Source of the DNA: an uncultured Acidobacteriota bacterium
GTDB taxonomy: Bacteria > Acidobacteriota > Terriglobia > Versatilivoradales > Versatilivoraceae
Length of the DNA stretch: 64,000 nt
Reading direction: 5' to 3'
Assembly (NCBI GenBank): GCA_963803155.1
Contig: CAWDMN010000059.1
Location: 300,636-364,635, forward strand
Positions 4,722 through 64,000 of this stretch are shown in pieces. The notes below the pieces were generated by a model. It was not told the origin of the DNA. It saw only the letters and a program-made list of their open reading frames with translations, and did no database searches. The position numbers were made by a program, and so were the translations under genes. Position 1 is the stretch's first letter. Every line of letters starts with the position of its first letter.

Positions 4722-6002
4722 TTAGTAGACGAATTCTCGAATATCATAGAGGGCCACTTGAGGGGAGTGCGAATCCTTCCGTTGGATTCCCATCCGAATT
4801 TCCGTTAATTGATTTTGAATTTTTTCACCGGATAAACTATTGATCCCCTGCTCCGTCATTTTGCGGCTGTAGAGATCGTCTTCAGTCGTTTTCAAAGGTG
4901 AGAGATAAATCAAATCTCCATGGCCCAGAGAAAGCGAATTCACCAATTTAAGAGTTTGACTCACATGGGTCTGCTCGTAACGATCGCCACCTACTCCAAC
5001 CAAGAGGATGATCCCAACCTGAATTCCGGCGCTTTTTAGATTCGCGACAACATCCAGGACTTGCTCGGGATGAGCGGATTTATTCATCCACTGTAGTAAT
5101 TCATCACAGCCGGTTTCCACGCCAAGATACACTCGCCGCAAATGGAGCCGCTGAAGATCTTTGAAATCAGCCACGCTCTTTCTCTCTCCGGTAAAGCTGT
5201 CCAAAAAAGAGTAGATCCCTTGAAAGACCGCGGAGCCATGTTCCAAAGGAACGGCTGTTCTGTCTTCTCCACGCCAGGTGAATTCCTCCTTCATTATGGC
5301 AAAAAACTCCACTAACTGAGGTTGAGGGATAACTAGCGCATTGGCGTCGGCCAGGAAGATGCTGCGTCTCAGTCGGATGGAGTCACCGAAGAATAGCTTT
5401 GCCTGTTGGATGTGATTTTGAAATTCTTCCAGGCTCTTGATATGGAAATGTGTTTGATCGTAAAAATGGCAAAACGTGCAACGATTCCAGTGACAACCTT
5501 CCGTGGCCTGAAGAACCAGCGCCTGGTACTGGTCTGGGGGGAGAATGGTGATCGGTTTGTAAACACGATTGAATTGTTCGCGCTGATTTTCCAATCGTTC
5601 AAGATTCCATCCCACAATCTTCTTGAGGCGGGCAAGAATCGTTCCCCTTTGCGAGAGGCTCGGCTGTGACGACTCTTGGGAACTCAAACGCCTCGTCGAG
5701 AGGTCAGCCGCCAAGCGGGAAATCAGTGCATAAGCGCTCTCCAAAACATGGAGTTTTTCAGAACCGCGGCACTCTTCGATTAATTTCCAGGGAGATTGGC
5801 CGAGGGGATCCCGTGATTTTTTGATGAGCCGGTTATCCAAAGTACGGAGATAGGTTCGATCCCCTTGCCAGGCCGTGAGAAATCGCCCTTCCAAATCGAA
5901 GGCATATACTTCCGAGTCATCCAAGCTGATTGCCGTGGATTCGACTTTTAAATTTAAAATGACCTTTCGGCCATCCCGGGAAAATGGAAAATCAAACAGC
6001 AT
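4722..6002 (-). CDS. putative radical SAM-like enzyme with non-canonical Cx4Cx2C cluster motif
   Basis: The motif LQATEGCHWNRCTFCHFY sits where radical SAM proteins carry CxxxCxxC-aromatic. A Gly-rich VGVGGD segment follows. The assignment is by motif only. Confidence 0.4.
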   Translation of the reverse strand: MLFDFPFSRDGRKVILNLKVESTAISLDDSEVYAFDLEGRFLTAWQGDRTYLRTLDNRLIKKSRDPLGQSPWKLIEECRGSEKLHVLESAYALISRLAADLSTRRLSSQESSQPSLSQRGTILARLKKIVGWNLERLENQREQFNRVYKPITILPPDQYQALVLQATEGCHWNRCTFCHFYDQTHFHIKSLEEFQNHIQQAKLFFGDSIRLRRSIFLADANALVIPQPQLVEFFAIMKEEFTWRGEDRTAVPLEHGSAVFQGIYSFLDSFTGERKSVADFKDLQRLHLRRVYLGVETGCDELLQWMNKSAHPEQVLDVVANLKSAGIQVGIILLVGVGGDRYEQTHVSQTLKLVNSLSLGHGDLIYLSPLKTTEDDLYSRKMTEQGINSLSGEKIQNQLTEIRMGIQRKDSHSPQVALYDIREFVY

Positions 6003-6341
6003 TTTTAACGCTCATTTTAAGAAGCCATTTAATCACTCGGTTCAAACCAAGGGCGTCCATTAAAATATCATCGTCAAAACTTGATAAGTCACAGGGGTCG
6101 CCTACAATCACAATTGAGAGACAAAAGTGGGATTGGTGTCCGCCAAATATAGGAATAATCTGGCAGGCTGCTTATGTGCGCTCGGTTGCCGCCGAAAGCA
6201 CCAACCGAGCTGAACAGTGAGGGACGAGCCCTCCATGCAGCCTGCGGGCGCTGACAGAAGGCCTGATTCTTCCCTGCATGGCGATTCCGAAGTCAAAAAC
6301 GGCACCCAGCGTGATACCTATTCCGCCCCGTGATTTTCCGG

Positions 6342-6530
6342 CTACTTTTTCAGGTTCTCGCGCCACAAAAGAATCGCCAATCCACCCGTAAATAGACACG
6401 CCACTGCACTCATCCACATTGGCACCATCATACTCCCCACGGTCACCTCCACTCGGGATAGAATCCGCAGGAGGTGCGCCAGAGCGATCACTGCCAAAAA
6501 AATCGTTGCCACCAAAGATGCCGGTTTCAT
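6342..6530 (-). CDS. small two-helix membrane protein (hypothetical)
   Basis: 62 aa with two hydrophobic helices (LVATIFLAVIALAHLL; AVACLFTGGLAILLW). No similarity recognised. Confidence 0.25.
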   Translation of the reverse strand: MKPASLVATIFLAVIALAHLLRILSRVEVTVGSMMVPMWMSAVACLFTGGLAILLWRENLKK

Positions 6531-6701: not shown

Positions 6702-7655
6702 TTACAATTTGCGCGCATACCTTGACGTTTTTAAAAGAACAATCACGCTGACAACAAGAATGGGACCCACTCCCAAAACAAGAGGGTAAAAGGCATCGTG
6801 AGGATTTTCGAGAGGAAAGAACAAACAGAAAACACCCGCTAGAACCATGAGCCATGACCATGCGATGAACTGTTTGGCCCCATACGCATTGATGTTGTAC
6901 CAATTTTCGGCTGACTCAAATGCCTTGGGAATTCGAACGCCGTACCAGTGGTTCATTTTGATTTTCTTTTGCCAAAGGGGAAGGCTGAAACTAATAATGA
7001 GGATGGCGCCTGCAAGGTTCACAATGCCAAATAGGATCTGTGGCCGGTTTAGGCCCGATTTCGAGTCTCCAGCCGGATGTGGATGGAGTTTGGATGCCTC
7101 TTTCTTGAAATATTCCGCAATCCCCTCAATTTGTACACTGGTCATTTGCGGCGCAGTCCTTTTGAATAATCCCTCCAGCGACTGAATCTCCTGAGGGCTT
7201 CCCGGATAGCCAATGTTAGCGCCATTTGCCATTGCTCTTGAGTCGGCGATTTTTGCTCCAGTCTTATCGAGAAAGACATAAAAGGGAAGACCCGCATTTT
7301 CCCCACCCAGATCGACCAGCAGCTTTTCCGCCCCGGGATTTTCCAGGATTTTCTTCGCTCCACTCTCCTTGACTGTGAGTTTGACCAAAATATAATGATC
7401 TGCCAGCAGTCTGCTTATTTCAGATGAGTATAAAGCAGCATCCAGCCGCTTGCACCAACCTCACCAGGAAGCCCCAAAATGGAGCAGGATGCTTTTATTT
7501 TCCGTCTGAGCCGCCTGAGTAGCATGGCTAAGAAGAAATTGTGCGGATGGGATTGTCGTGCTGGTTTTTTGAGACAGGATGTGTTTTGCGGCAAACAAAC
7601 CCAAAGTCATAATTAAGGCGGCTGTGAACGCAAAGTGTGTCCTAAAATGCTTCAT
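6702..7655 (-). CDS. candidate selenoprotein: secreted thioredoxin-fold protein with in-frame UGA (7461-7463) inside a W-U-G-W-C redox motif, fused to a C-terminal multi-pass membrane domain
   Basis: Two six-frame ORFs (7461..7721 and 6702..7388) lie in the same frame, separated only by TGA. Read through, the sequence is ..SILLHFGASW-[TGA]-GWCKRLDAALYSSE.., which is a thioredoxin-type UxxC motif. A 7-bp hairpin with a UGGAU loop starts 9 nt after UGA (7433-7451), which fits a bacterial SECIS element. The probable start is ATG 7655 (MKHFRTHFAF, signal peptide) with SD GAGAGG 6 nt upstream. Confidence 0.5.
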
Positions 7656-7733
7656 CTGGTCCTCTCTTCTACCGCTTCGACATTTGTGAAGGCTCATACT
7701 CTCCTCCTCCCATTCCAACAAACGGATTGAGGG

Positions 7734-25890: not shown

Positions 25891-26634
25891 TTTAATCTCT
25901 CAAAATAAGTTCTTAAATTTGAATCCATATAAAATAACAGAAAGGATAATAAAATACGCTCCCCCTGCACCGGAGCAAACGGTATTGTGGCAAAACAACT
26001 GTCCGCCAGCAAGAATAAGATGATAATCCACATGATTTTTTTTCAGGGATACAACAACTGAGTGGATATTGGCGGAGCCGTCGATTGATGGCATCTACTC
26101 AGCTCTTCGCTGTCAACCGATCAAATCAAGAAGCACAAAACCTAAGAGAGTATTTAATTTCTTAATCGTTCACTTCCAAGGCTTAGGCTCAGGAATAAAC
26201 CACGGGAATCATGGGTAATCAATCACGCAATTCCCCACCCCGATCACTCGCTAGTGTTTCCCGTTTCTGTGTTTAATCGCTTTTCGGAGGTTTGCCAAAC
26301 AGTTGTTTTTTCTCTTTGCATTTTTTTTCAAGTGAAGGACAATTTCTCCGTTAGCTGGTTAGGATTAACATTTGGGATTGAGATCCTCATGCTGCATCAA
26401 TCCCGTCATCCCGTCAAAGCGGGAGCAGAAGTTTTTGAGGGTTTGGTATGCGCCACCCGAGCCTGGAGGGACCGGCCCGTCCAGGAAAAGCAGTGGAGGT
26501 TCTATAGCTTCAAAATTGCCCGTCAATCCGCACGGATCTTTGAGCGCGGATTATTGAATTATTGAAGAGTTTTTCATTGTGTTGAGTAAGGCTTGCCAAG
26601 CGCGGTGGTTTTGCGCGGAACGGATATCACGGCC

Positions 26635-27981
26635 ATGAAATCATTAAAAATAGGAATTTCCGGAGTGCGCGGAATCGTCGGAGAGACTTTTACTCCTGAG
26701 CTCGCATGCGGGTTTGCCGAGGCTTTTGGCACTTATATGGATGGCGGACGAATATTGGTCTGCCGGGACCCGCGCCCTTCGGGACCGATGGTAGTTGCCG
26801 CTGTTTCCGCCGGCCTTTTGGCTTCCGGCTGTGAAATCGTGGACTTGGAGATCTGTCCCACACCCTCTTTGCAAATAGCGGTTCGTCAGATGAAAGCCCA
26901 AGGAGGCATCTCCATTACGGCAGGCCACAATCCCATGCACTGGAATGCCTTAAAATTCGTGCGGGGCGATGGTCTTTATTTGAATTCCTCACAAGCGGAA
27001 GAATTGCTCGATGTTTTTCATCAGGGAGAATTCAACAAGGCCAGCTGGAGGGAAATGCAGACCTCCATCCCCAAAGGGGATGCGCTGGAACTGCATCTCG
27101 CGGCTCTGCGTCCGGCCTTCGATATAGAGAAGATTAGCTCTCGCAAGCTTCGTGTGGCCGTGGACTGCTGCAACGGTTCCTGCTCCGTTCTCAGCCCGCG
27201 ATGGCTGGAGGTGCTGGGTTGCCAGGTTCTGGCCGTCAATGATGACCCCTCGCTTCCTTTCCCCCGCAATCCCGAGCCTAGGCGGGAAACCATGGCCCAG
27301 CTTCGCGCGGTGGTCAAAGCCGGCCAGGCCGATATCGGATTTGCCCATGATGCCGATGGAGAACGGCTGGGAATCGTTACTGAGTCTGGTGAGCCCCTGG
27401 TGGAAGAAAAGACTTTGGCCATGGCAGTCCAAATTAAGCTTGCCCAAAAGACCGGGCCCGTGGTTACGAATATTTCCACCAGCCGGGCCATTGAATTAAT
27501 CGCGCAGCGATTTGGAGCTTCGGTCATCCGCACTCCCGTCGGCCAGGCTTATATTTCCGAGGCTATGCTGGAACATCAGGGAGTCATTGGCGGCGAAGGG
27601 AGCGGCGGAGTCATTATCCCAGAAGTGCAGATGACTCACGACAGCACTGCGGCCTTGGCTTTAGTGCTGGAATGGATGGCTGTCACCGGCAGCCGGATTT
27701 CAGAGTTGGCTGAAAGCATCCCTCAATTGGCTATCGTGAAACATAATATCTCCGTCCCGCCGAATCGTATTTATACACTTTTGCAGGGATTTTTAGAGCG
27801 GGTTGAGAGAGAAGAACCCGCGGAAATTAATTTGACGGATGGCATTAAGATCAATTGGCCAAATGGATGGGTGCATTTGAGGGCCTCGAACACAGAGTCA
27901 ATGATCCGGATCATCGCCGAAGCCGCTACAGCCGCTGAAGCACAACAATTTCTTGACTGGGCACGCGACCGGCTTTCCTGA
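26635..27981 (+). CDS. alpha-D-phosphohexomutase paralog 1 (phosphoglucosamine/phosphomannomutase-like) with catalytic Ser replaced by Gly
   Basis: Start taken at MKSLKIGISGVRG. The active-site loop reads ITAGHNP (codon GGC), where the family has TASHNP. The metal loop is DADGER instead of DxDxDR. The sugar-binding and phosphate-binding regions are otherwise conserved. Confidence 0.8.
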   Translation: MKSLKIGISGVRGIVGETFTPELACGFAEAFGTYMDGGRILVCRDPRPSGPMVVAAVSAGLLASGCEIVDLEICPTPSLQIAVRQMKAQGGISITAGHNPMHWNALKFVRGDGLYLNSSQAEELLDVFHQGEFNKASWREMQTSIPKGDALELHLAALRPAFDIEKISSRKLRVAVDCCNGSCSVLSPRWLEVLGCQVLAVNDDPSLPFPRNPEPRRETMAQLRAVVKAGQADIGFAHDADGERLGIVTESGEPLVEEKTLAMAVQIKLAQKTGPVVTNISTSRAIELIAQRFGASVIRTPVGQAYISEAMLEHQGVIGGEGSGGVIIPEVQMTHDSTAALALVLEWMAVTGSRISELAESIPQLAIVKHNISVPPNRIYTLLQGFLERVEREEPAEINLTDGIKINWPNGWVHLRASNTESMIRIIAEAATAAEAQQFLDWARDRLS

Positions 27982-28099
27982 CAAGTTGAAATTCGGCTTT
28001 GGGATTTTGACTTAGAAGCCCACTTCCCGCCGGAATACGCTCATCGCGCCTTCTCGACTTGTTGGCGAATGGAATTGTGCATTACCCTTTATTTTATCT

Positions 28100-28131
28100 G
28101 GATCTTGCCGCGATTGGTCGCGGCAAGATCC
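28100..28131 (+). promoter_or_regulatory. perfect 14-bp stem / 4-nt loop hairpin (ggatcttgccgcga-ttgg-tcgcggcaagatcc) between the two mutase paralogs
   Basis: Read directly from the sequence. There is no U-run after it. Confidence 0.6.
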
Positions 28132-28144
28132 AAACAGGTGGATT

Positions 28145-29507
28145 TATGCGTGCAATCCCCACATTAAAAATCAGCATTTCCGGTGTTCGCGGAGTTGTGG
28201 GAGACTCCCTGACACCGACGCTACTGACCCGTTTTGCCCAGGCCTTTGGCACTTATACGAATTCCGGCACCATTGTGATCGGACGCGACACCCGCACTTC
28301 GGGCGAAATGGTCCGACAGGCCGTGATAGCCGGATTACTCTCCAGCGGGTGCCGTGTCCTCGACTTGGATATCTGTCCCGTTCCTACCATCCAATGGATG
28401 GTCCGGCATTTGGGCACTCCTGGCGGCATCGCTATCACAGCCAGCCACAATCCCGCTGAGTGGAACGCCCTGAAATTCGTCGGCGCCAATGGACTATTTC
28501 TGGATTCCGGCCAAGCCCGCGATTTGCTGAACATTTATCACCAGGGGGAATATACTCTGGTGCGTGGTGTCGAGATGCGCTCGGTGGAACATGTCAAGGG
28601 CGCGTGTGACCTGCACATTGCCGCCATTCTCAAGGAATTGGGCCCCCTGGCGGGAAAAGAAAAAAAAATCCGTGTCGTGCTTGACTCCTGCAATGGGGCC
28701 GGCTCGCTGGCAGGCCCTCGGCTGCTCGAAGCCTTGGGCGCGGAAGTCATCCCGGTTTTTAACACTCCCGATGGATCCTTTCCCCGTCCGGCTGAACCGC
28801 TCCCACAAAATTTGGGGGTCTTGTGTGAATCCGTAAAGAAACATCAGGCCGATGTCGGTTTTGCCCAGGATATGGATGCAGACCGGCTGGCCGTGGTTTC
28901 TGAACAAGGAATTCCCATTGGCGAGGATTTTACTCTGGTTTTGGCCACTTATTATGTTCTCAGTCATACTCAGGGCGCGGTTGTCTCCAATCTCTCAACC
29001 AGCCATGCGCTGGATTGGGTCGCGCGCAAATTCCACTGCCCGATTGTAAAAAGCAAGATAGGAGAAGCCAATGTCACCGAGACCATGCGGCGGGAAAATG
29101 CCATCATTGGCGGTGAGGGGAATGGTGGAGTGATTTTTCCCCGCTTGAATTTCGCGCGGGACAGCTTGGTGGGAATGGCCCTCATCCTGCATCTGCTCGA
29201 AAAGTCCGGAAAATCCATTTCCACGCTGATCGGAGAGATGCCCGCCTTCCAGATGGTCAAGGAGAAACTGCCCTGCCCCTCCGACAAAATCCAGCCGGTT
29301 TTAAAAATGCTTCGTCAAAAATACGCAACTTACCCACAGGACTTGCGGGATGGGATAAAAATTGAAGTGCCGGGTGGCTGGTTTCATGTGCGCGGATCCA
29401 ACACGGAACCCATCATCCGCCTGGTTGCTGAGGGAGAATCCGCGAAAATTCTGGAAGACCTCCGTTCTTCAGTCTTCGGGCGGGTGAAGGATTTCTTGGG
29501 CTGCTGA
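28145..29507 (+). CDS. alpha-D-phosphohexomutase paralog 2 (intact active site TASHNP; metal loop DMDADR)
   Basis: Start taken at MRAIPTLKISISGVRG. All four phosphohexomutase domains are recognisable. Confidence 0.85.
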
Positions 29508-34351: not shown

Positions 34352-34422
34352 GATGATGGAGGCGGCCTGTCCAGGCCGTCTGAGCAGGCTTGGCAAACTC
34401 AGGCGGGGCACCCCGCCTCCAT
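34352..34422. repeat. structured repeat family R3, copy 2
   Basis: gatgatggaggcggcctgtccaggccgtctgagcaggcttggcaaactcaggcggggcaccccgcctccat is about 90% identical to the reverse complement of 24842-24913. Confidence 0.65.
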
Positions 34423-54304: not shown

Positions 54305-55416
54305 GGGTCAGACCTTAATTGTTGTTAATTGAGTTTCATTGTAATTGTCCGGATCTGATTAACTTGCATGTTTTTTCGAGAAGCCGCCCTCGCGCAGGGT
54401 CGGTCTTGACTTCATTGGCCAGTATCTTCAAATGCCGGCTTACTGCCGCGCTACTGGCCAGCCCTAGCTGCCGGGCCACCTCCCGCTCGCTCAGCCCGCC
54501 CATTTCCACCAGCAGTTTCATAGCCAGCCGCCGTCCCGGATGTCGCGAATGCAAGCGCCTGAGTTCTTCGACCTCCATCCCACAGACCTGGCTGACGGCC
54601 TTCAGGATCACCGACGAATCGATTCCCACCTCCGTTCGCCTCATTCGAATCTCTTCGGGTGCCTGGAATTGACCAAGTCTCTGTTCTTGTTCCTCCTCTG
54701 CCCATTGGCAAAAGGTCCGATCGCCGATTGCCTTCGTCGAGTGCCCCATCACTTCCGCCAGCTCTTCATCCTTCCTGGCAATTCCGCTCTCGACAAACTC
54801 CCGATAAGCCCGGGCGCGGTCCTTTTTCCCTTCTCCCAGCCAGGCTGTCAGTGGCCCGTAATCCACAAAGGCTTCCTTCTGCTTTACCCCTGCATAGCCG
54901 CCGTAACTGCTCCAGCGATATTGCCGCAGCAGGCCAATCTTTTGTTTAATCGGCCATCCCCGCATGCGCTTAATCTTGACGGGATTCAAATGGACGTATC
55001 GGGTCAATTGCAGCAAGTAGCGGCTCTCCTCCACCAGTCGGGATTTATACCTTCCCTCCAATAAATGTCCATGCCGCTGGTGGCGCCGATTAAAGTAGAC
55101 CGTATAGGCGGTGCTGAAGTGCTGCATAAACCGGCTCAAGTTGGCCCGCGGGGTCTCCACCAGCAGATGCAGATGATTGCTCATGAACACGTAGGCATAG
55201 AGACGCACCTGGTAGCGCTCCAAGCTGGCCGCGAGCTTCTGCTGCATCACCTCCCGGTCGGAGTCATCGTGGAAGAGTTCCTTGCGCTCCTGACCCCGCG
55301 TAGTGACATGATAGATCGCCCCCGGATAAAGAATTCTAATCGATCGCGCCATATGCCAATATTACCCTGAGTTTGCTTTATGATTCAACATAATAGCAAC
55401 TATTAAGGTCTGACCC
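54305..55416 (-). mobile_element. compact IS carrying a Y1 HUH (IS200-like) transposase, bounded by 20-bp inverted repeats GGGTCAGACCTTAATWGTTG
   Basis: Left end 54305-54324 (gggtcagaccttaattgttg). Right end 55397-55416 (the reverse complement is gggtcagaccttaatagttg). 19/20 match. Confidence 0.6.
54336..55352 (-). CDS. IS200-like Y1 (HUH) transposase with C-terminal DnaA-C-like HTH extension (COG1943 long form)
   Basis: HUH motif SNHLHLLVE. The catalytic Tyr region is EGRYKS. The C-terminal 150 aa carry a helix-turn-helix (RQLGLASSAAVSRHLK). Confidence 0.75.
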   Translation of the reverse strand: MARSIRILYPGAIYHVTTRGQERKELFHDDSDREVMQQKLAASLERYQVRLYAYVFMSNHLHLLVETPRANLSRFMQHFSTAYTVYFNRRHQRHGHLLEGRYKSRLVEESRYLLQLTRYVHLNPVKIKRMRGWPIKQKIGLLRQYRWSSYGGYAGVKQKEAFVDYGPLTAWLGEGKKDRARAYREFVESGIARKDEELAEVMGHSTKAIGDRTFCQWAEEEQEQRLGQFQAPEEIRMRRTEVGIDSSVILKAVSQVCGMEVEELRRLHSRHPGRRLAMKLLVEMGGLSEREVARQLGLASSAAVSRHLKILANEVKTDPARGRLLEKTCKLIRSGQLQ

Positions 55417-56545: not shown

Positions 56546-57299
56546 ATGGGACAGAGAGTAATTGGAGCCGGAAAAAGAAGCAAGGGCAAAGAGAGAAGAA
56601 AAAAGAGACAACAAATCCAAGAAGAAGTTAGGACTTTGGACAGTCGGTTTGAACTGATCCAGATGTTGATCCCTCTAGGCTTGAAAGCAGTGGAAGAAGA
56701 ATTACAGAAAGAGGTGGAACAGCTGGTTGGCCGCGGAGCCAGCCGGAGTCCGGAGAATCGACGCTGGGGAAGAAATCCAGGATCAGTCTACCTGGGAGAT
56801 CAGAAAGTCAGAGTCGAAGTGCCGCGAGTACGAAATGTAGCGGTGCGCCAAGAAGTGCCTCTGGAGAGTTATCAAGCTTTTCGAAAGACGAAGGTGTTGG
56901 ACCATCAGGTCCTGAATCGACTGATCTGTGGGATCAGCCAGAGGCAATATGAACAGGCGGCTCTCTGTGTGCCCGAGACGTTTGGGATCAAAAAGAGCAG
57001 TGTGTCGCGACACTTCATTCGAACCACGGCTCGGAAGTTGGAAACTTTTTTGAATCGGGATTTGAGCCAGCACGATCTTGTGGCGATCTTTATCGATGGG
57101 AAGCGGTTAGCAGAAACCGATATGATCGTGGCTTTGGGGATTACGCTCGAGGGTAAAAAGATCCTATTGGGATTTGTAGAAGCCAGCACAGAAAATCAAC
57201 GAGTGGCTCAGGATTTTATCCAGCGACTGCTGGATCGAGGGTTAAGAACCGAACAGGAGATTCTCTTCATTATCGACGGAGTCAAAGGGCTGTATAAAG
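56546..57299 (+). pseudogene. IS256-family (mutator-type) transposase, N-terminal fragment, interrupted by IS66
   Basis: ...HDLVAIFIDGKRL...ILFIIDGVKGLYKG is typical IS256 DDE region 1. The frame continues at 59823 (IKASLAEKALIQRCQWHKRENV, IS256 region 2). Confidence 0.75.
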
Positions 57300-57345
57300 G
57301 TAAGCGTCCATTTATCCCCACCTTGTGATTACGGGGGGACAGGGA

Positions 57346-58965
57346 TTATGATGACTGGTTTTGTGAAGAACGGCGGACCGGTTTGAGATCAACATTCCAG
57401 GGCAACAGTGGATCCAGATTTTGATTATCTCTGAGCGGCAGGTTGGGCAATTTCTCAAATAAAAGGAATAGATAAGCATAAGGATCCAGGTTGTTTTCTT
57501 TGGCGGTTTCGATAAGGCTGTAGATGATGGCACTTGATTTCGCCCCCTTGGGGGTGTTACTGAACAGCCAGTTTTTCCTTCCAATGACGAAGGGTTTGAT
57601 GGATCGTTCCGCCCGGTTGTTGGACAGTTCCAACCGGCCATCCTCCAGGAAACGGATCAGCTTCGGCCATTGCTGACGACAATAATTCACGGCCACGCCC
57701 AAAAGGCTTTTAGGTAAAACGACCAGAGCTTGTTCATCCAACCACCGGCGAAACTGATCCAACACCGGCCGGCTTTTCTCTTGCCGTGATTTCAAACGCT
57801 CTTCCGGAGTGCTCTCTTTCAGTCCCCGCTCCATGTCAAAGAGCCGATTAATCTGATCCAAGCCCGCCTGGGCCTGGCTGCCGTTCTTGCGATACTTGGC
57901 CGGCAATCCTTTCAGAGCTTCATCGAATTTTCTTCGAGCATGCGCCCAACACCCCACCAAAGTGACCTGGGGCAGGTCATGATATCCCGCATAGCCATCC
58001 ACCTGCAGATATCCCTGGAATCCTTTTAAGAATTCTTTGGGATGATCTCCAGCACGGCTTTGCTGATAATCATAGAGGACCATAGCGGGTCCTTCTCTTC
58101 CGGTCCGATACAACCACATGTACGATTGGCTCTCCGCCTCTCGTCCCGGTTCCTTCAGCACTTGGACCGTTGTCTCATCCGCATGGAGAATATCCCGCTC
58201 GAGCAACTTTTGCCTCAAACGAAGATAGAGCAACTCCAGCCATTCACTTCCCTTGATCATCCAGTTTGAAAGAACCGATCGGGACAGTTCGATGCCCATC
58301 CGCTGATAATGTTGTTCTTGCCGGTACAAGGGCACCCCTTCCACAAACTTCATCGTCATCACATAAGCCACCGACGAAGCCGAAGCCAGACCTTTTTCAA
58401 TCACCGGTTTGGGTGCCACCGCCGTTTTAATGGGTACTTCGATCCCATTCTTCTCGCAGTTCCGGCAGCTGTAGACAAAACGGACGTGCTGTAAGATTTT
58501 TACCTGCGCCGGAATCAGCTGCACTTCATGACGGGTCTCTTCACTCATTTCGTGCATCCGGCCGCCACAACAGGAACAGACCTGCTCCTCTTCCGCCAGC
58601 CGGTACTCGATGCGCTCCATCGGAAGGTCTTGCGGAATGGGCCGCCGCCCGGGCTTTCTTTTCCGTTCATAGCTGATGGTAATCTTGTCTTCGGCGAGAG
58701 CCGGAGCGGCTTCATCGACTGCTTCCGCCTCATTGAACAGGCTGGGTTGTTCCGGCACGCTGCGTTCACTCGATGGGCCATACTGTTTGGCTCGCGCCAA
58801 GTGAAACTGCTCCTCAAACCAGCGCAGCTTTTCCTCCAGCTGTTCGATTTTTGTGGCCTGTTGATTCAACTGAGCAACCAGTTCTTCGCGAGTTTCCAGG
58901 GGCTTTGGCAAGACCGTTGACATGCCTGCTATTATACGGATTTGCCCTTCTTTTTTCAAGTACAA
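57346..58965 (-). CDS. tnpC: IS66-family transposase TnpC (DDE, zinc-finger)
   Basis: N-terminal leucine zipper. Zinc-finger CSCCGGRMH...CRNC. The DDE core region matches IS66 Orf3. Confidence 0.9.
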   Translation of the reverse strand: MYLKKEGQIRIIAGMSTVLPKPLETREELVAQLNQQATKIEQLEEKLRWFEEQFHLARAKQYGPSSERSVPEQPSLFNEAEAVDEAAPALAEDKITISYERKRKPGRRPIPQDLPMERIEYRLAEEEQVCSCCGGRMHEMSEETRHEVQLIPAQVKILQHVRFVYSCRNCEKNGIEVPIKTAVAPKPVIEKGLASASSVAYVMTMKFVEGVPLYRQEQHYQRMGIELSRSVLSNWMIKGSEWLELLYLRLRQKLLERDILHADETTVQVLKEPGREAESQSYMWLYRTGREGPAMVLYDYQQSRAGDHPKEFLKGFQGYLQVDGYAGYHDLPQVTLVGCWAHARRKFDEALKGLPAKYRKNGSQAQAGLDQINRLFDMERGLKESTPEERLKSRQEKSRPVLDQFRRWLDEQALVVLPKSLLGVAVNYCRQQWPKLIRFLEDGRLELSNNRAERSIKPFVIGRKNWLFSNTPKGAKSSAIIYSLIETAKENNLDPYAYLFLLFEKLPNLPLRDNQNLDPLLPWNVDLKPVRRSSQNQSS

Positions 58966-59412: not shown

Positions 59413-59735
59413 GCCGCACCCACCACCTCCAGCACCTCGGCCAGCAGTTGCCGGTCAAATCCCCTCTCTACCTCCACAATCACTCGCCCAATCCTCAGGC
59501 GAATTCCAGTGTCCCGATTTGACGGATCTTCCTCGCACAATTGCAAGGGTATCCAGCCCATTCGTTTTTTCTCGAGGGATCGAATCGCCTGCTTTTTTAA
59601 TTTCCGTTGCCAATAACCCAACCGATGAATGGGGATCTGATGCTGCTGACAATATTCCCTTCGGCTTACTCCACTTTCTTGATATCCTCGGACTTGCTGC
59701 TGCCAATACTCTATGATCTCTGCTGTCGCCTTCAT
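59406..59735 (-). CDS. tnpA: IS66 Orf1 (TnpA, HTH)
   Basis: 109 aa, SGVSRREYCQQHQIPIHRLGYWQRKL. It overlaps tnpB by 7 nt, the typical IS66 arrangement. Confidence 0.8.
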   Translation of the reverse strand: MKATAEIIEYWQQQVRGYQESGVSRREYCQQHQIPIHRLGYWQRKLKKQAIRSLEKKRMGWIPLQLCEEDPSNRDTGIRLRIGRVIVEVERGFDRQLLAEVLEVVGAAC

Positions 59736-59822
59736 GATGGACTTTGCCTCCCTATTGTATTTTCGGAAGCATTATCCTCGGCAATGGTTTTTATTGGAAG
59801 GTGGGGATAAATGGACGCTTAC

Positions 59823-60339
59823 GTATAAAGGGATCAAGGCGAGCCTGGCGGAGAAAGCCTTGATTCAAAGATGCCAATGGCACAAGCGGGAAAATGTAGT
59901 CAGTTATTTGAGCCGGGAACAAGCAAAACGATTCCGGCAGAAAATGCAGACGGCTTATCAGCAACCCAGTTATGAAAAGGCGAAAGAAGCCCTGGAGCGA
60001 ATTGCTAAAGAGCTGCGATTGATCAATGGTTCTGCGGTGGAGAGCCTGAAAGAAGGGTTAGAAGAGACTCTGACTCTGCATCGTTTGGGATTGTTTGAAG
60101 AATTAGGCACCAGTTTTAAAACCACCAATTGCATTGAGAATGTGAATCGGCAATTGGAGCGGTTGACGCATCGAGTCAGTTACTGGAAGAACAGCGATCA
60201 GCGCCAGCGTTGGATAGCCACGTCGCTCCTGCAAATTGAGCCCGGGCTAAGAAAGGTGAAAGGCTTTCGTCATCTAAAAGCCCTTCGCAAAGCCATGAAA
60301 AAGGAAAGTCATCCAAAATCGGATCAAGCAGCCGCTTGA
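59823..60339 (+). pseudogene. IS256-family transposase, C-terminal fragment
   Basis: Contains the conserved IQRCQWHKRENV motif. It is in frame with 56546-57299 once the IS66 and one duplication copy are removed. Confidence 0.75.
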
Positions 60340-60646: not shown

Positions 60647-62107
60647 TCATGGTTGGACTTTGTTTTCGTTGTGCAAAGGCCTCAAACGTCCGTAGAAATC
60701 CAGAATTGTGCCGTCGGCCTTTACGTCGATCATGGAAATTGGACGGTCAAGGCTGATCCCTTCCATTGTTCTGCAGCGCGATAAAGCAACGTAGGTTTGC
60801 CCCGAGCAGAACGCACCTTGCCCTAAGTCGATTCTTACTGAGTCGAGCGTCATGCCTTGCGACTTATGAATTGTTATGGCCCATCCAAGTGTAATTGGAA
60901 ATTGCGTAAATGAGCCGACGACATTACTGATGATCCGCTTCTCGATGCGGTCATACTCATACTTAATCTTCTCCCACGTCACCCGTTCTACACTTACAGT
61001 GTTCCCTGTATTCTGGATTTCTATTCGTAGTTTATCGTTCTCGATGTTAATGACCCTTCCAAGGGTTCCATTAAGCCAATACGGTTTATTGTTCTTTACG
61101 AATAAGATCTGCGCTCCTTCTTTAAGTTCTAATCGATGCGGAGCCTGGAATCGATCTCTCTGCACGTCAAACTCTCCTTCAATGATCGCGTCAAACTTCC
61201 AGAGTGGGGCCTCCAGGGCGTTCAAATTCTGAGTATTGATCGATTTGGCGGCGGCATTGGTTGGAACGAGGAACAATGAGGGATTGGCGCTCGGTTTGCG
61301 GTCTCGGAAGCAATCGCGGTTGATCCGCGCCACGGCCTCACGGTGGTCATTGTTAAGTCTGATGCGATCAAGCAGGTCAACGAACTCTTGATTTGTCTGG
61401 CGAAACACTTTGGTCAGTTCAATAGAGATCACTTTCGCTTGGCCGAAAATATCGGCAGAGAAAAAGTGGGAAGACCGATACCTATCCGTGTAATATTGTG
61501 CGACTTCTGGATCTCTGACCACAGGCGGCAACTGGAGAAGATCCCCCACGAATATCACCGGAACCCCACCAAATGGGCGCGGATCCCTTCGAACTTTCTT
61601 GAGCGTGTTGCTCATACAATCGACTAAGTCGGGAGGGACCATCGATATTTCATCGACTACGAGTGCGCCGAGACATTCGATGACGGGAACGATCTGTCGC
61701 CTTGGCTCGAACGCCTCATCGGGATTCAGTGTTCGTGGAGGGATGTTAAAAAACGAGTGGATTGTTGATCCGTGAACATTGATCGCTGCAAGTGCAGTCG
61801 GTGCCACAACGGCACAATTTGCGATCTTTTCGGAAAGGAACCGGATAAGTGTGGACTTTCCGGTCCCCGCGCGTCCCGTTACAAAAATAGCGGGACATCC
61901 GCCCTCAATCGCTTCTAAGACAAATTGGTATTCTGGCAGAACTACAATCGTATCCGTGTCCTGCTTTGTAGCGGACGAAATACGCTTCGGATTCGTTCGC
62001 TGGGTCGGTGCAAGTTCGCGGTCGATCTTCGACAGATCAACCGGCGTTTGTGCATCCACGCCGAGCAAGCGTTTTGCCAGATTGCTTATACCAGACCAGA
62101 CACTCAT
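60647..62107 (-). CDS. SF1B Pif1/RecD-like DNA helicase (compact, 486 aa)
   Basis: Walker A VTGRAGTGKST. Motif II LVVDEISMV (DExx without the UvrD-type DEFQD). Motif III VIFVGDLLQLPPV (Pif1-type GDxxQLPPV). Motif V ITIHKSQGMTLD. Motif VI TYVALSRCRT. Confidence 0.75.
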   Translation of the reverse strand: MSVWSGISNLAKRLLGVDAQTPVDLSKIDRELAPTQRTNPKRISSATKQDTDTIVVLPEYQFVLEAIEGGCPAIFVTGRAGTGKSTLIRFLSEKIANCAVVAPTALAAINVHGSTIHSFFNIPPRTLNPDEAFEPRRQIVPVIECLGALVVDEISMVPPDLVDCMSNTLKKVRRDPRPFGGVPVIFVGDLLQLPPVVRDPEVAQYYTDRYRSSHFFSADIFGQAKVISIELTKVFRQTNQEFVDLLDRIRLNNDHREAVARINRDCFRDRKPSANPSLFLVPTNAAAKSINTQNLNALEAPLWKFDAIIEGEFDVQRDRFQAPHRLELKEGAQILFVKNNKPYWLNGTLGRVINIENDKLRIEIQNTGNTVSVERVTWEKIKYEYDRIEKRIISNVVGSFTQFPITLGWAITIHKSQGMTLDSVRIDLGQGAFCSGQTYVALSRCRTMEGISLDRPISMIDVKADGTILDFYGRLRPLHNENKVQP

Positions 62108-62190: not shown

Positions 62191-64000
62191 TTACGAGTCA
62201 TAAAGCCTTCGGATTTCCTGCAACCATCCTCGGACATCACCTTGTGGATCCACAGCTGTAAGCAGTGTAGGAGTCATTGCAGACGCTGCCTCCGAATTAA
62301 GGCGTCTTTTTGTGCGACTGACCTTCTTTCGCTTCTTCTCTTCTTCAAGGTTATTCCAAGGATCGCACCCACCCCCAATATCGTGGATGTTTTGAGCGAC
62401 GATATCAGGAACATCATCGAAGTCGGTATAAGTGACATTGACTCCAATAGCTGAGTTGATAGCGTCAGGGTGAAGGTAGTTCTCCATTTCGCGTTTGCCT
62501 GTAAGTAATGCTCGGCCTCCTCGAGCGTTGATGGAATCAACAGCGCTCTGGTGTGAAGAGACTTTAGGAGGCAGATCGTCGCGATCGTAGAGATGAAATT
62601 CAGGTCGATTGAGACCGGCGAGCCTGTGAGTCCAAAGCGTGAGGTTTGAACCTCCTACGGGAATGAACACGAGTCGCCCCTGGCTTTCTAGTCCGCGCAA
62701 GTCAAGAACATCTTCCCCTGCTGCTCGTAGTACATCTGAAATATTGCAGAGGAAATCAATGTCGTTGACACCCTCAACGCCGATGAAAAGCCGAACATCG
62801 TGGTCGGCAATAACACCAAGAGAGGAAGCGATGTTACGATATGTGTCGGCTGCATTCTGATGAACGACCCGCCCGCCTGTTCCTTCTGTCGTAACATGCT
62901 TAAGGGCGCTAAGCGGAAGGTCTCGCACCAACAATGGGGTGTGTGTAGTGAAAATTACCTGACATCCGGGTTGCTCACTGAGATCGCGCAATGCTGTCAG
63001 AAGTAACCGCTGGTTCCTTGGGTGCTGGCTGGTTTCTGGCTCCTCGATTGCGTATATGACTCCGGGTGCTTCAGCAGTGGCTAAACGCTTCTCTGCTCTG
63101 GCTCTAAAGAAGTTCAGAAGTATTAGTCGTCGAACACCGCTACCTCGTTTGTTTATTGGTATCTGGAAGTCGTCCGTCAAGCTGATACCAAATACCTTCG
63201 CCCAGTTCGGCTTCGAGAAACGTGGATTCAGTTCTTGCGCAAGTGTCGGATCCATCTCACGAAGCTTCTCGACTGTTGCCCGTGCAATTCCGAGGACTTG
63301 ATCGCGAACAAATGTGGTCAGAGTCTCGAGTGCAACTTCCTGAATCTGCAGTGCTTCGTCAACAGCTGTCTTAAGAGGATCTTGGGCTTCTTCGTCTTGG
63401 TCGGTGCTCTTACGATCAGAGTGAAAAATAGCGAAAAGTGGGAGTTGCTTGGAAAGCGCCCCCCATATCTTCTTCGCGTCCTCCTTCTCGATGTCAATCT
63501 CCTGCTCGCGAGGATGAAGGGCTGGTGCTGAGCACCATATTGCTTGGCGGAGTTCTGAATTGACTCGTTGATCCACCTGACTGATGTCGACACCGAGTTG
63601 CTCTGCGCGATTCTTTAGGTCTCTGTTCTTCAAATATAGTAGGTCAGAGTATTTCTCCGCAGTAGGATGACTGGCGAAAATGAATGTGCGTGTGAGTTTT
63701 GGTTTCTGAAGTTCTCCATTGAAAACGCGGTGAATCTCCAAATTCCCTTGTCCATTGAGCAGCCATTCATCTGCAGGAGATACCTTGTGGTCAGTGTCGA
63801 TCAGGATGCTTTTGGGGAGATCGGAGAATTCACACATTATGGTCATATCGGCTTTGTTGCCAGTAATACTTCCATCGTCAGAATCTGGCATATACTCGCC
63901 GAAGAACATTGCGAGCGCATCCAATATTGCGGATTTGCCTGAATCATTACGCCCGATAAGCGCTGTAAGCGCTTCAAGGTTAATAGCTGTTTCCGCTTGA
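62191..64000 (-). CDS. OLD-family ATP-dependent endonuclease (N-terminal ABC-type ATPase + C-terminal TOPRIM), 5' end beyond window edge
   Basis: The frame stays open to position 64000 and reads ..QAETAINLEALTALIGRNDSGKSAILDALAMFF (Walker A of OLD/AAA_15-21 ATPases). The TOPRIM block is RLFIGVEGVNDIDFL...HLYDRDD. It has the same orientation as the helicase and sits 83 bp upstream of it. Confidence 0.7.
   Translation of the reverse strand, partial: QAETAINLEALTALIGRNDSGKSAILDALAMFFGEYMPDSDDGSITGNKADMTIMCEFSDLPKSILIDTDHKVSPADEWLLNGQGNLEIHRVFNGELQKPKLTRTFIFASHPTAEKYSDLLYLKNRDLKNRAEQLGVDISQVDQRVNSELRQAIWCSAPALHPREQEIDIEKEDAKKIWGALSKQLPLFAIFHSDRKSTDQDEEAQDPLKTAVDEALQIQEVALETLTTFVRDQVLGIARATVEKLREMDPTLAQELNPRFSKPNWAKVFGISLTDDFQIPINKRGSGVRRLILLNFFRARAEKRLATAEAPGVIYAIEEPETSQHPRNQRLLLTALRDLSEQPGCQVIFTTHTPLLVRDLPLSALKHVTTEGTGGRVVHQNAADTYRNIASSLGVIADHDVRLFIGVEGVNDIDFLCNISDVLRAAGEDVLDLRGLESQGRLVFIPVGGSNLTLWTHRLAGLNRPEFHLYDRDDLPPKVSSHQSAVDSINARGGRALLTGKREMENYLHPDAINSAIGVNVTYTDFDDVPDIVAQNIHDIGGGCDPWNNLEEEKKRKKVSRTKRRLNSEAASAMTPTLLTAVDPQGDVRGWLQEIRRLYDS

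Follow-up and report, generated by a model that had tools for sequence, protein, structure and literature searches.

Several kinds of bacterial thioredoxin-fold protein carry selenocysteine (Sec) in a UxxC motif. Among those listed in PMC13188914 are Trx, Grx, Prx-like, DsbA-like and DsbG-like proteins and a 'thiol:disulfide interchange protein', and the UxxC relatives described there and in PMC1794560 include a selenoprotein thioredoxin (PF00085) and the 'thiol:disulfide interchange protein' of PF13098 (representative WP_011366075.1). In the table of PMC13188914, no UxxC family belongs to PF13899 or PF03190, and SdpI does not feature at all. Two studies (PMC1794560; PMC12013277) describe just three or four selenoproteins from Acidobacteriota: the phylum is given three families with four selenoproteins in Table 2 of PMC1794560, and three selenoprotein genes are known in Occallatibacter riparius (PMC12013277). 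Here we describe a minus-strand gene at 6702..7655 of a 64,000-nucleotide stretch of DNA from an uncultured bacterium, hereafter the window. We found that the gene is broken by an in-frame UGA at codon 65, and comparison with related sequences indicates that this codon is very probably recoded as Sec. Judged by sequence similarity, the host is a Terriglobia (Acidobacteriota) metagenome-assembled genome (MAG), the MreB of the window being 92-93% identical to proteins of Terriglobia/Acidobacteria MAGs.

The gene would add an exported UxxC protein of Thioredoxin_7 type to the selenoproteome of Acidobacteriota, a dominant yet under-studied soil phylum. Sec in a UxxC thioredoxin fold, with a selenocysteine insertion sequence (SECIS) inside the open reading frame (ORF), is a textbook principle, and no long-standing question is opened by the gene.

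A UGA codon at the redox position

A single in-frame TGA at 7463-7461 breaks the minus-strand ORF 7655..6702. The earlier note on this DNA, made from the letters of the window, had reported two same-frame ORFs parted by this TGA alone, and both the ORF and its read-through translation bore this out. When the TGA was read through, the product ran ...KSILLHFGASW-U-GWCKRLDAALYSS..., the context of codon 65 being ...LLHFGASW-U-GWCKRLDAALY.... The complete gene thus read has 317 codons including Sec65, from the ATG at 7655-7653 to the TAA at 6704-6702, and its counterpart in GCA_936419285.1 (locus L001) has the same length and architecture. Reading of the sequence also pointed to a Shine-Dalgarno-like GAGAGG (7661..7666) 5 nt upstream of the ATG. 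The start at 7655 was preferred over an upstream in-frame ATG at 7697 because the frame in L001 opens just 6 codons before the equivalent methionine.

The UGA (7461..7463) lies in an active-site motif of UxxC type, W64-U65-G66-W67-C68 (7452..7466), for which homologues have WC[GTVSP]WC. WUGWC occupies the canonical redox position of thioredoxins, with which it aligns as it does with the WCGHC site of the a' domains of protein disulfide isomerase (PDI), and comparison with solved structures matched the U position to the N-terminal Cys of the PDI site. Together with the Cys homologues described below, this alignment confirmed that the UGA stands at the first redox position of the motif.

A TGC or TGT misread as TGA would give the same picture, since TGA and TGC differ by one base and the window is part of a MAG. 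We found, however, the identical in-frame TGA in four further assemblies of the same clade, GCA_936419285.1 (L001), ERR4998642 (L002), JGI 3300069203 (L003) and Logan ERR11596056 (L072), with protein identities of 80-93% and the frame intact on both flanks. The codons at the site read tgg TGA ggt tgg tgc in L003 and tgg TGA agc tgg tgc in L001 and L002. The same codon is present in 46 other metagenome contigs, which are considered below. Because the same TGA recurs in different samples and assemblies, sequencing or assembly error, which the earlier note had named as a way in which its proposal could fail, is effectively refuted.

The UGA might also be a true stop, leaving a pseudogene or split gene that makes a 64-residue peptide or, by re-initiation, a separate C-terminal protein. 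This is how the nearest database proteins, P0001 (93% identity) and P0002 (80%), are annotated, both being C-terminal fragments called by gene finders on contigs that carry the in-frame TGA. In public gene calls the gene is cut to fragments of 214-228 aa, and it is split or truncated in every call found. TGA is, moreover, a normal stop in this genome, ending 11 of the 27 Pfam-supported genes in the window. Against this, the TGA and both flanking frames are kept across clades, and the first possible restart codon, a TTG, lies 24 codons past the TGA, with no ATG, GTG or TTG in between. Comparison of these 24 codons between the window and L001 revealed 16 identical codons, 5 synonymous and 3 non-synonymous changes, a substitution pattern like that upstream of the TGA and in the remainder of the gene. 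The bias towards synonymous change, in a stretch where initiation is impossible, argues that these codons are under purifying selection at the protein level. They encode the conserved second Cys and a helix of the thioredoxin fold, and neither the signal peptide nor the active site would be present in a re-initiated fragment. We therefore regard a split gene or pseudogene as very unlikely.

A hairpin directly downstream of the UGA

The model of the bacterial SECIS (bSECIS) given in PMC13188914 allows a loop of 3-9 nt with a G in its first two positions, an upper stem of 4-16 bp, a minimum free energy (MFE) of -7.5 kcal/mol or lower and 16-37 nt between the UGA and the loop. Directly past the motif, at 7433..7451 on the minus strand, the transcript can form a hairpin within every one of these limits, and free energy, these limits and covariation together mark it as bSECIS-like. 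Its 7-bp stem consists of AAGCGGC (7451-7445) and GCUGCUU (7439-7433), with one G-U among the 7 pairs, and its 5-nt loop, UGGAU (7444-7440), has G at positions 2 and 3. The isolated hairpin has a free energy of -9.2 kcal/mol; it begins 9 nt past the UGA, with 16 nt from the UGA to the loop. The proposal of a SECIS-like hairpin 9 nt past the UGA, within the spacing of bacterial elements, thus stood up to comparison with published constraints. Folding of the UGA with the next 37 nt (40 nt in total) gave -13.8 kcal/mol (z = -2.4), which 2 of 200 shuffled sequences equalled. In this fold UGAG pairs with CUCA beneath the hairpin, which might make an extended SECIS at 7424..7463 (MFE -13.8 kcal/mol), a weak candidate whose lower stem is not kept in L001.

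A single hairpin of this kind is only modestly improbable by chance, and it is the comparative evidence that lifts the observation above chance. We found that 11 related Sec genes share the hairpin, termed class A, at identical codon positions, with 88% of cells paired. Compensatory double changes (among G-C, A-U and G-U) were present at three of the seven pairs, 14-30, 15-29 and 17-27, none of 500 shuffles reached the covariation score, and RNAalifold, run unguided, returned the same helix. The covariation couples the synonymous third position of a Lys/Arg codon to the second position of an Ala/Val codon, and thus the protein sequence has been bent to keep the stem. In a sister clade from peat the corresponding position holds another hairpin, GCCUCGAUA-GGUU-UAUCGAGGC, which is 92% paired with two covarying pairs.

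Furthermore, the hairpins were associated with the Sec forms of the family. The 39 nt past the motif fold more strongly in Sec forms (z = -1.9, against +0.15 for Cys forms), despite the lower G+C of the Sec forms; the difference was significant (Mann-Whitney p = 3.7e-9), although the sequences behind the hairpin statistics are phylogenetically related, which makes such p-values optimistic. In the Cys forms nearest to the window clade (L004-L008), A-F-L stands in place of the A-A/V-L of class A Sec forms, which prevents the 3' arm of the hairpin from forming.

Relatives with UGA and with a cysteine codon

Homology searches yielded about 200 homologues of about 190 aa, which lack the C-terminal membrane module of the window protein and carry the motif F-[GSH]-A-S-W-C-x-W-C. 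Cys was invariant at the position of the TGA in their alignment (A1). FGASWCxWC was also found in 48 genomic loci from Acidobacteriota, Verrucomicrobiota and other genomes, and the expectation in the earlier note that Cys homologues would have Cys at the aligned U position is upheld by the alignment and these loci alike. The scan of genomic contigs gave Cys forms only, one of its two patterns demanding Cys, so that it tells little about the frequency of Sec forms in genomes.

When metagenome contigs were searched with a DNA pattern for F-G-A-S-W-TGA-x-W-C, 49 matches were obtained, three of them due to chance. In the other 46 contigs, read-through of the TGA gave full-length homologues of about 181 aa with the downstream motifs LPF[FY]xFLD and NIG.P, which shows that Sec forms are common in metagenomes of peat and soil. 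A rough neighbour-joining tree placed Sec forms at no fewer than three positions among the Cys forms; a scattered distribution of Sec and Cys of this kind fits the description of bacterial selenoproteins in PMC1794560. The only database entries for the Sec forms are truncated '104-aa hypothetical proteins'. Dozens of such entries (P0414-P0506; for example at 10001-10315 of L129) are C-terminal halves of Sec forms cut at the UGA. Like the window gene, which is mis-annotated in public calls, these hypotheticals from soil and peat are wrongly annotated.

Several observations weigh against the interpretation of codon 65 as Sec, or limit what can be built on it. The 16-nt spacing between UGA and loop is the lower limit of the bSECIS model, and the relatedness of the sequences, mentioned above, tempers the folding statistics. 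Rfam gave no match over the whole window at the gathering threshold; a relaxed search (E<=10) of 7300-7560 returned a single lncRNA match, which is spurious, and no SECIS family. In the peat clade, UGC alleles (L123-L128) are 87-91% identical to UGA alleles (L074-L122) and have the identical 9-bp hairpin, and in one of them (L124) the retained hairpin has a compensated pair, A-U to G-C. Since UGC alleles keep the hairpin, the hairpin alone is no proof of Sec decoding. The genes selA, selB and selD and a tRNA-Sec were found neither in the 64-kb window nor in the other loci retrieved: ARAGORN detected no tRNA-Sec in the window or 29 loci, Pfam scans of 38 window ORFs gave no SelA, SelB or SelD, and a tblastn search of 767 kb with an E. 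coli SelD query had no match, a result that is uninformative. No conserved redox partner, such as DsbD/CcdA, was evident next to the Sec genes, whose neighbourhoods vary between clades. Finally, function, redox direction and partners of the protein are proposed from homology.

The simplest reading of the peat UGC alleles is a recent conversion from Sec to Cys by one A-to-C change, which left a fossil SECIS; either that, or the hairpin has a second role. Whichever applies, near-identical UGA and UGC alleles with the same hairpin offer a natural system in which to study the replacement of Sec by Cys and the decay of a SECIS.

The alternation between UGA and UGC in near-identical genes shows that the site tolerates Cys without loss of function, and together with the negative searches for Sec machinery in the window and the loci retrieved it could be taken to favour read-through without selenium, in which a near-cognate tRNA inserts Cys or Trp at the UGA or the codon has been reassigned. 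The window genes that end at TGA exclude a reassigned genetic code. In addition, a hairpin specific to this site, with bSECIS geometry and covariation, argues for directed recoding, and the position of the UGA exactly at the redox Cys is the signature of known selenoproteins (PMC1794560). Selenium-free read-through is accordingly thought improbable, and Sec at codon 65 is the explanation we favour with high confidence. The use of Sec by some Acidobacteriota gives circumstantial support for the lineage; it is no evidence on this genome.

Architecture, surroundings and comparison with known systems

The predicted protein begins with a signal peptide or signal anchor at about residues 1-25 (7581..7655), in which MKHFRTH precedes a hydrophobic core. 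The signal peptide proposed in the earlier note was recovered as a hydrophobic segment with a hydropathy peak at residues 9-27 and remains a prediction; comparable signal-like sequences are found at the N-termini of Cys homologues. It is followed by a thioredoxin-fold domain of the Thioredoxin_7/DsbH-like type (residues 43-130; 7266..7529), recognised by Pfam with 40.8 bits for PF13899 (Thioredoxin_7) and 35.3 bits for PF03190 (Thioredox_DsbH), against a cut-off of 27. Sequence matches in the Protein Data Bank (PDB) were the PDI a' domains, 3fk8 and 2ju5 (DsbH). An AlphaFold2 model of residues 66-317 had a thioredoxin-type alpha/beta part with a pLDDT of about 90 and, beyond it, three long helices modelled with moderate confidence. 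Foldseek comparison of this model with the PDB gave nothing significant, the best hit being 3fk8 (E = 0.076), and no match was returned for the membrane part.

The C-terminal part contains an SdpI/YfhL-family membrane module (residues 231-305; 6741..6965; Pfam PF13630, 47.3 bits against a cut-off of 28.2). Three transmembrane helices are predicted, at residues 207-225 (6981..7037; hydropathy 2.38, and a long helix in the model), 264-282 (6810..6866) and 290-308 (6732..6788), the latter two from hydropathy and the model alike. Basic stretches follow the first helix (a loop beginning QKKIK...) and the third (the tail KTSRYARKL). The multi-helix membrane domain noted previously is thus present, with three helices; its description as unusual has to be refined, since it is an SdpI/YfhL module (PF13630) that also occurs by itself, in proteins of about 115 aa. 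An exhaustive search with the C-terminal 123 residues retrieved 251 representatives at E<=1e-10, mostly stand-alone proteins of 110-120 aa, and the stand-alone homologues were 40-46% identical. The module has the conserved motif KIxMNxxYG[IV]RIPKAFxSExxWYxINxYG. In a few relatives, such as P0260 and P0301, it lies C-terminal to unrelated exported domains, and its fusion to Thioredoxin_7 is confined to the small window clade. Because the module is found both alone and C-terminal to unrelated exported domains, tethering to the membrane is the most likely role of the SdpI-like part. Considered in its own right, the module (6705-7073 on the minus strand in the window; also P0242, P0260, P0284 and P0301) occurs either alone at about 115 aa or appended to unrelated exported or membrane domains, which suggests a portable membrane-anchor cassette.

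We propose that SelB with Sec-tRNA(Sec), recruited by the hairpin, would insert Sec at codon 65. The N-terminal signal sequence would export the protein, with the Thioredoxin_7/DsbH-like domain facing the periplasm, while the three-helix SdpI-like module would hold it at the inner membrane with the basic loop and tail in the cytoplasm, a topology drawn from hydropathy and the positive-inside rule. Sec65 would stand in for the N-terminal nucleophilic Cys of a CxxC site and C68 would be the resolving residue, so that the protein may act as a periplasmic thiol-disulfide oxidoreductase through a U65-C68 selenenylsulfide. By analogy with DsbH and domains of the DsbD-gamma type, the enzyme most likely acts as a reductase.

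Taken further, the data would fit an uncatalogued selenoprotein family, a proposal that we make tentatively and hold at somewhat less than even confidence. Such a family would consist of exported Thioredoxin_7/DsbH-like proteins with F-G-A-S-W-U-x-W-C, widespread in Acidobacteriota of peat and soil, whose history includes several switches between Sec and Cys. Versions with UGA and with UGC, as much as 91% identical, would occur together and share a hairpin, the fusion to SdpI in one small clade would have produced a membrane-tethered periplasmic selenoenzyme, and databases would hold only truncated hypotheticals.

The neighbours of the gene in the window encode a NagX-like acetyltransferase, a 62-aa membrane protein and a radical SAM protein. 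The latter two lie directly downstream on the same strand (4722-6530, minus); the radical SAM protein has 426 aa and weakly resembles B12-binding and PhpK-type methyltransferases. The order of this downstream pair is kept in L001 (1876-3713), a synteny that is uninformative at that evolutionary distance.

Elsewhere in the window, a second Sec candidate was examined, an in-frame TGA at 34399-34401 on the minus strand in the context CPAUVCQAC between open frames of 63 and 90 codons; it was rejected, as its translation looks non-coding. Tandem phosphoglucomutase/phosphomannomutase paralogues, each with all four PGM_PMM domains, are encoded at 26593-27981 and 28059-29507 on the plus strand. Towards the end of the window, a Mutator-family transposase on the plus strand is split into 56546-57328 (Pfam positions 15-239 of 379) and 59713-60339 (positions 241-367). 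An IS66-family transposase gene (57346-58965, minus strand) lies between the two halves, and the arrangement therefore represents a nested IS insertion. A 338-aa protein with an IS200-like Y1 transposase domain is encoded at 54336-55352 (minus strand), and genes for a PIF1-like helicase (60647-62107) and an AAA_15/AAA_21 ATPase (62191-63924) adjoin the IS cluster, also on the minus strand. The Y1 transposase, the helicase and the ATPase may form a mobile or defence island.

Among described systems, the UxxC selenoproteins introduced at the outset are similar to the window protein in having a thioredoxin fold, Sec in place of the N-terminal Cys of CxxC, abundant Cys homologues and a bSECIS inside the ORF directly downstream of the UGA. 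JGI, moreover, labels Cys homologues of the window gene 'thiol:disulfide interchange protein'. The window protein also has the trait of the PF13098 family, UxxC in an exported thioredoxin-like protein, its export being predicted by hydropathy. It differs from the PF13098 and PF00085 families in matching Thioredoxin_7 and Thioredox_DsbH best: PF00085 reached 23.3 against a cut-off of 23.5, and PF13098 gave 15.3 bits against 27, while precomputed PF13098 matches exist for Cys homologues. Compared by description rather than by representative sequence, none of the listed UxxC families has an SdpI-type membrane module. The motif of the window protein had no match when looked for in the full text of publications.

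The window protein fell below the cut-off of every curated selenoprotein family in NCBIfam. Its top NCBIfam match was DsbH of Chlamydia (NF043050; PDB 2ju5), a periplasmic disulfide reductase, yet with 34.9 against an equivalog cut-off of 190. DsbH, a single-domain protein, shares the exported Thioredoxin_7/DsbH-like domain, the signal peptide and the CxxC site, but uses Cys instead of Sec and lacks the C-terminal membrane domain. TsoB (NF045694) and Trx7/PDZ (NF041199) are likewise selenoproteins with a Thioredoxin_7/DsbD-gamma-like domain; their partner domains differ, their motifs are UxxxxU and CxxU, respectively, rather than UxxC, and the window protein scored 32.9 against a cut-off of 805 for TsoB and 16.4 against 300 for Trx7/PDZ.

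The C-terminal 75 residues resemble SdpI/YfhL (PF13630), named after the immunity and signalling protein SdpI of B. subtilis, with a score above the cut-off. No family of SdpC or SdpR type came up when the window was scanned with Pfam, and an association with sdpC/sdpR was not encountered. Unlike SdpI in the strict sense, the module is appended C-terminally to an exported redox domain, where its role would be anchoring and not immunity. In summary, the gene adds to a well-known class of selenoproteins, possibly as a member of an unlisted family, with a domain fusion specific to its clade.

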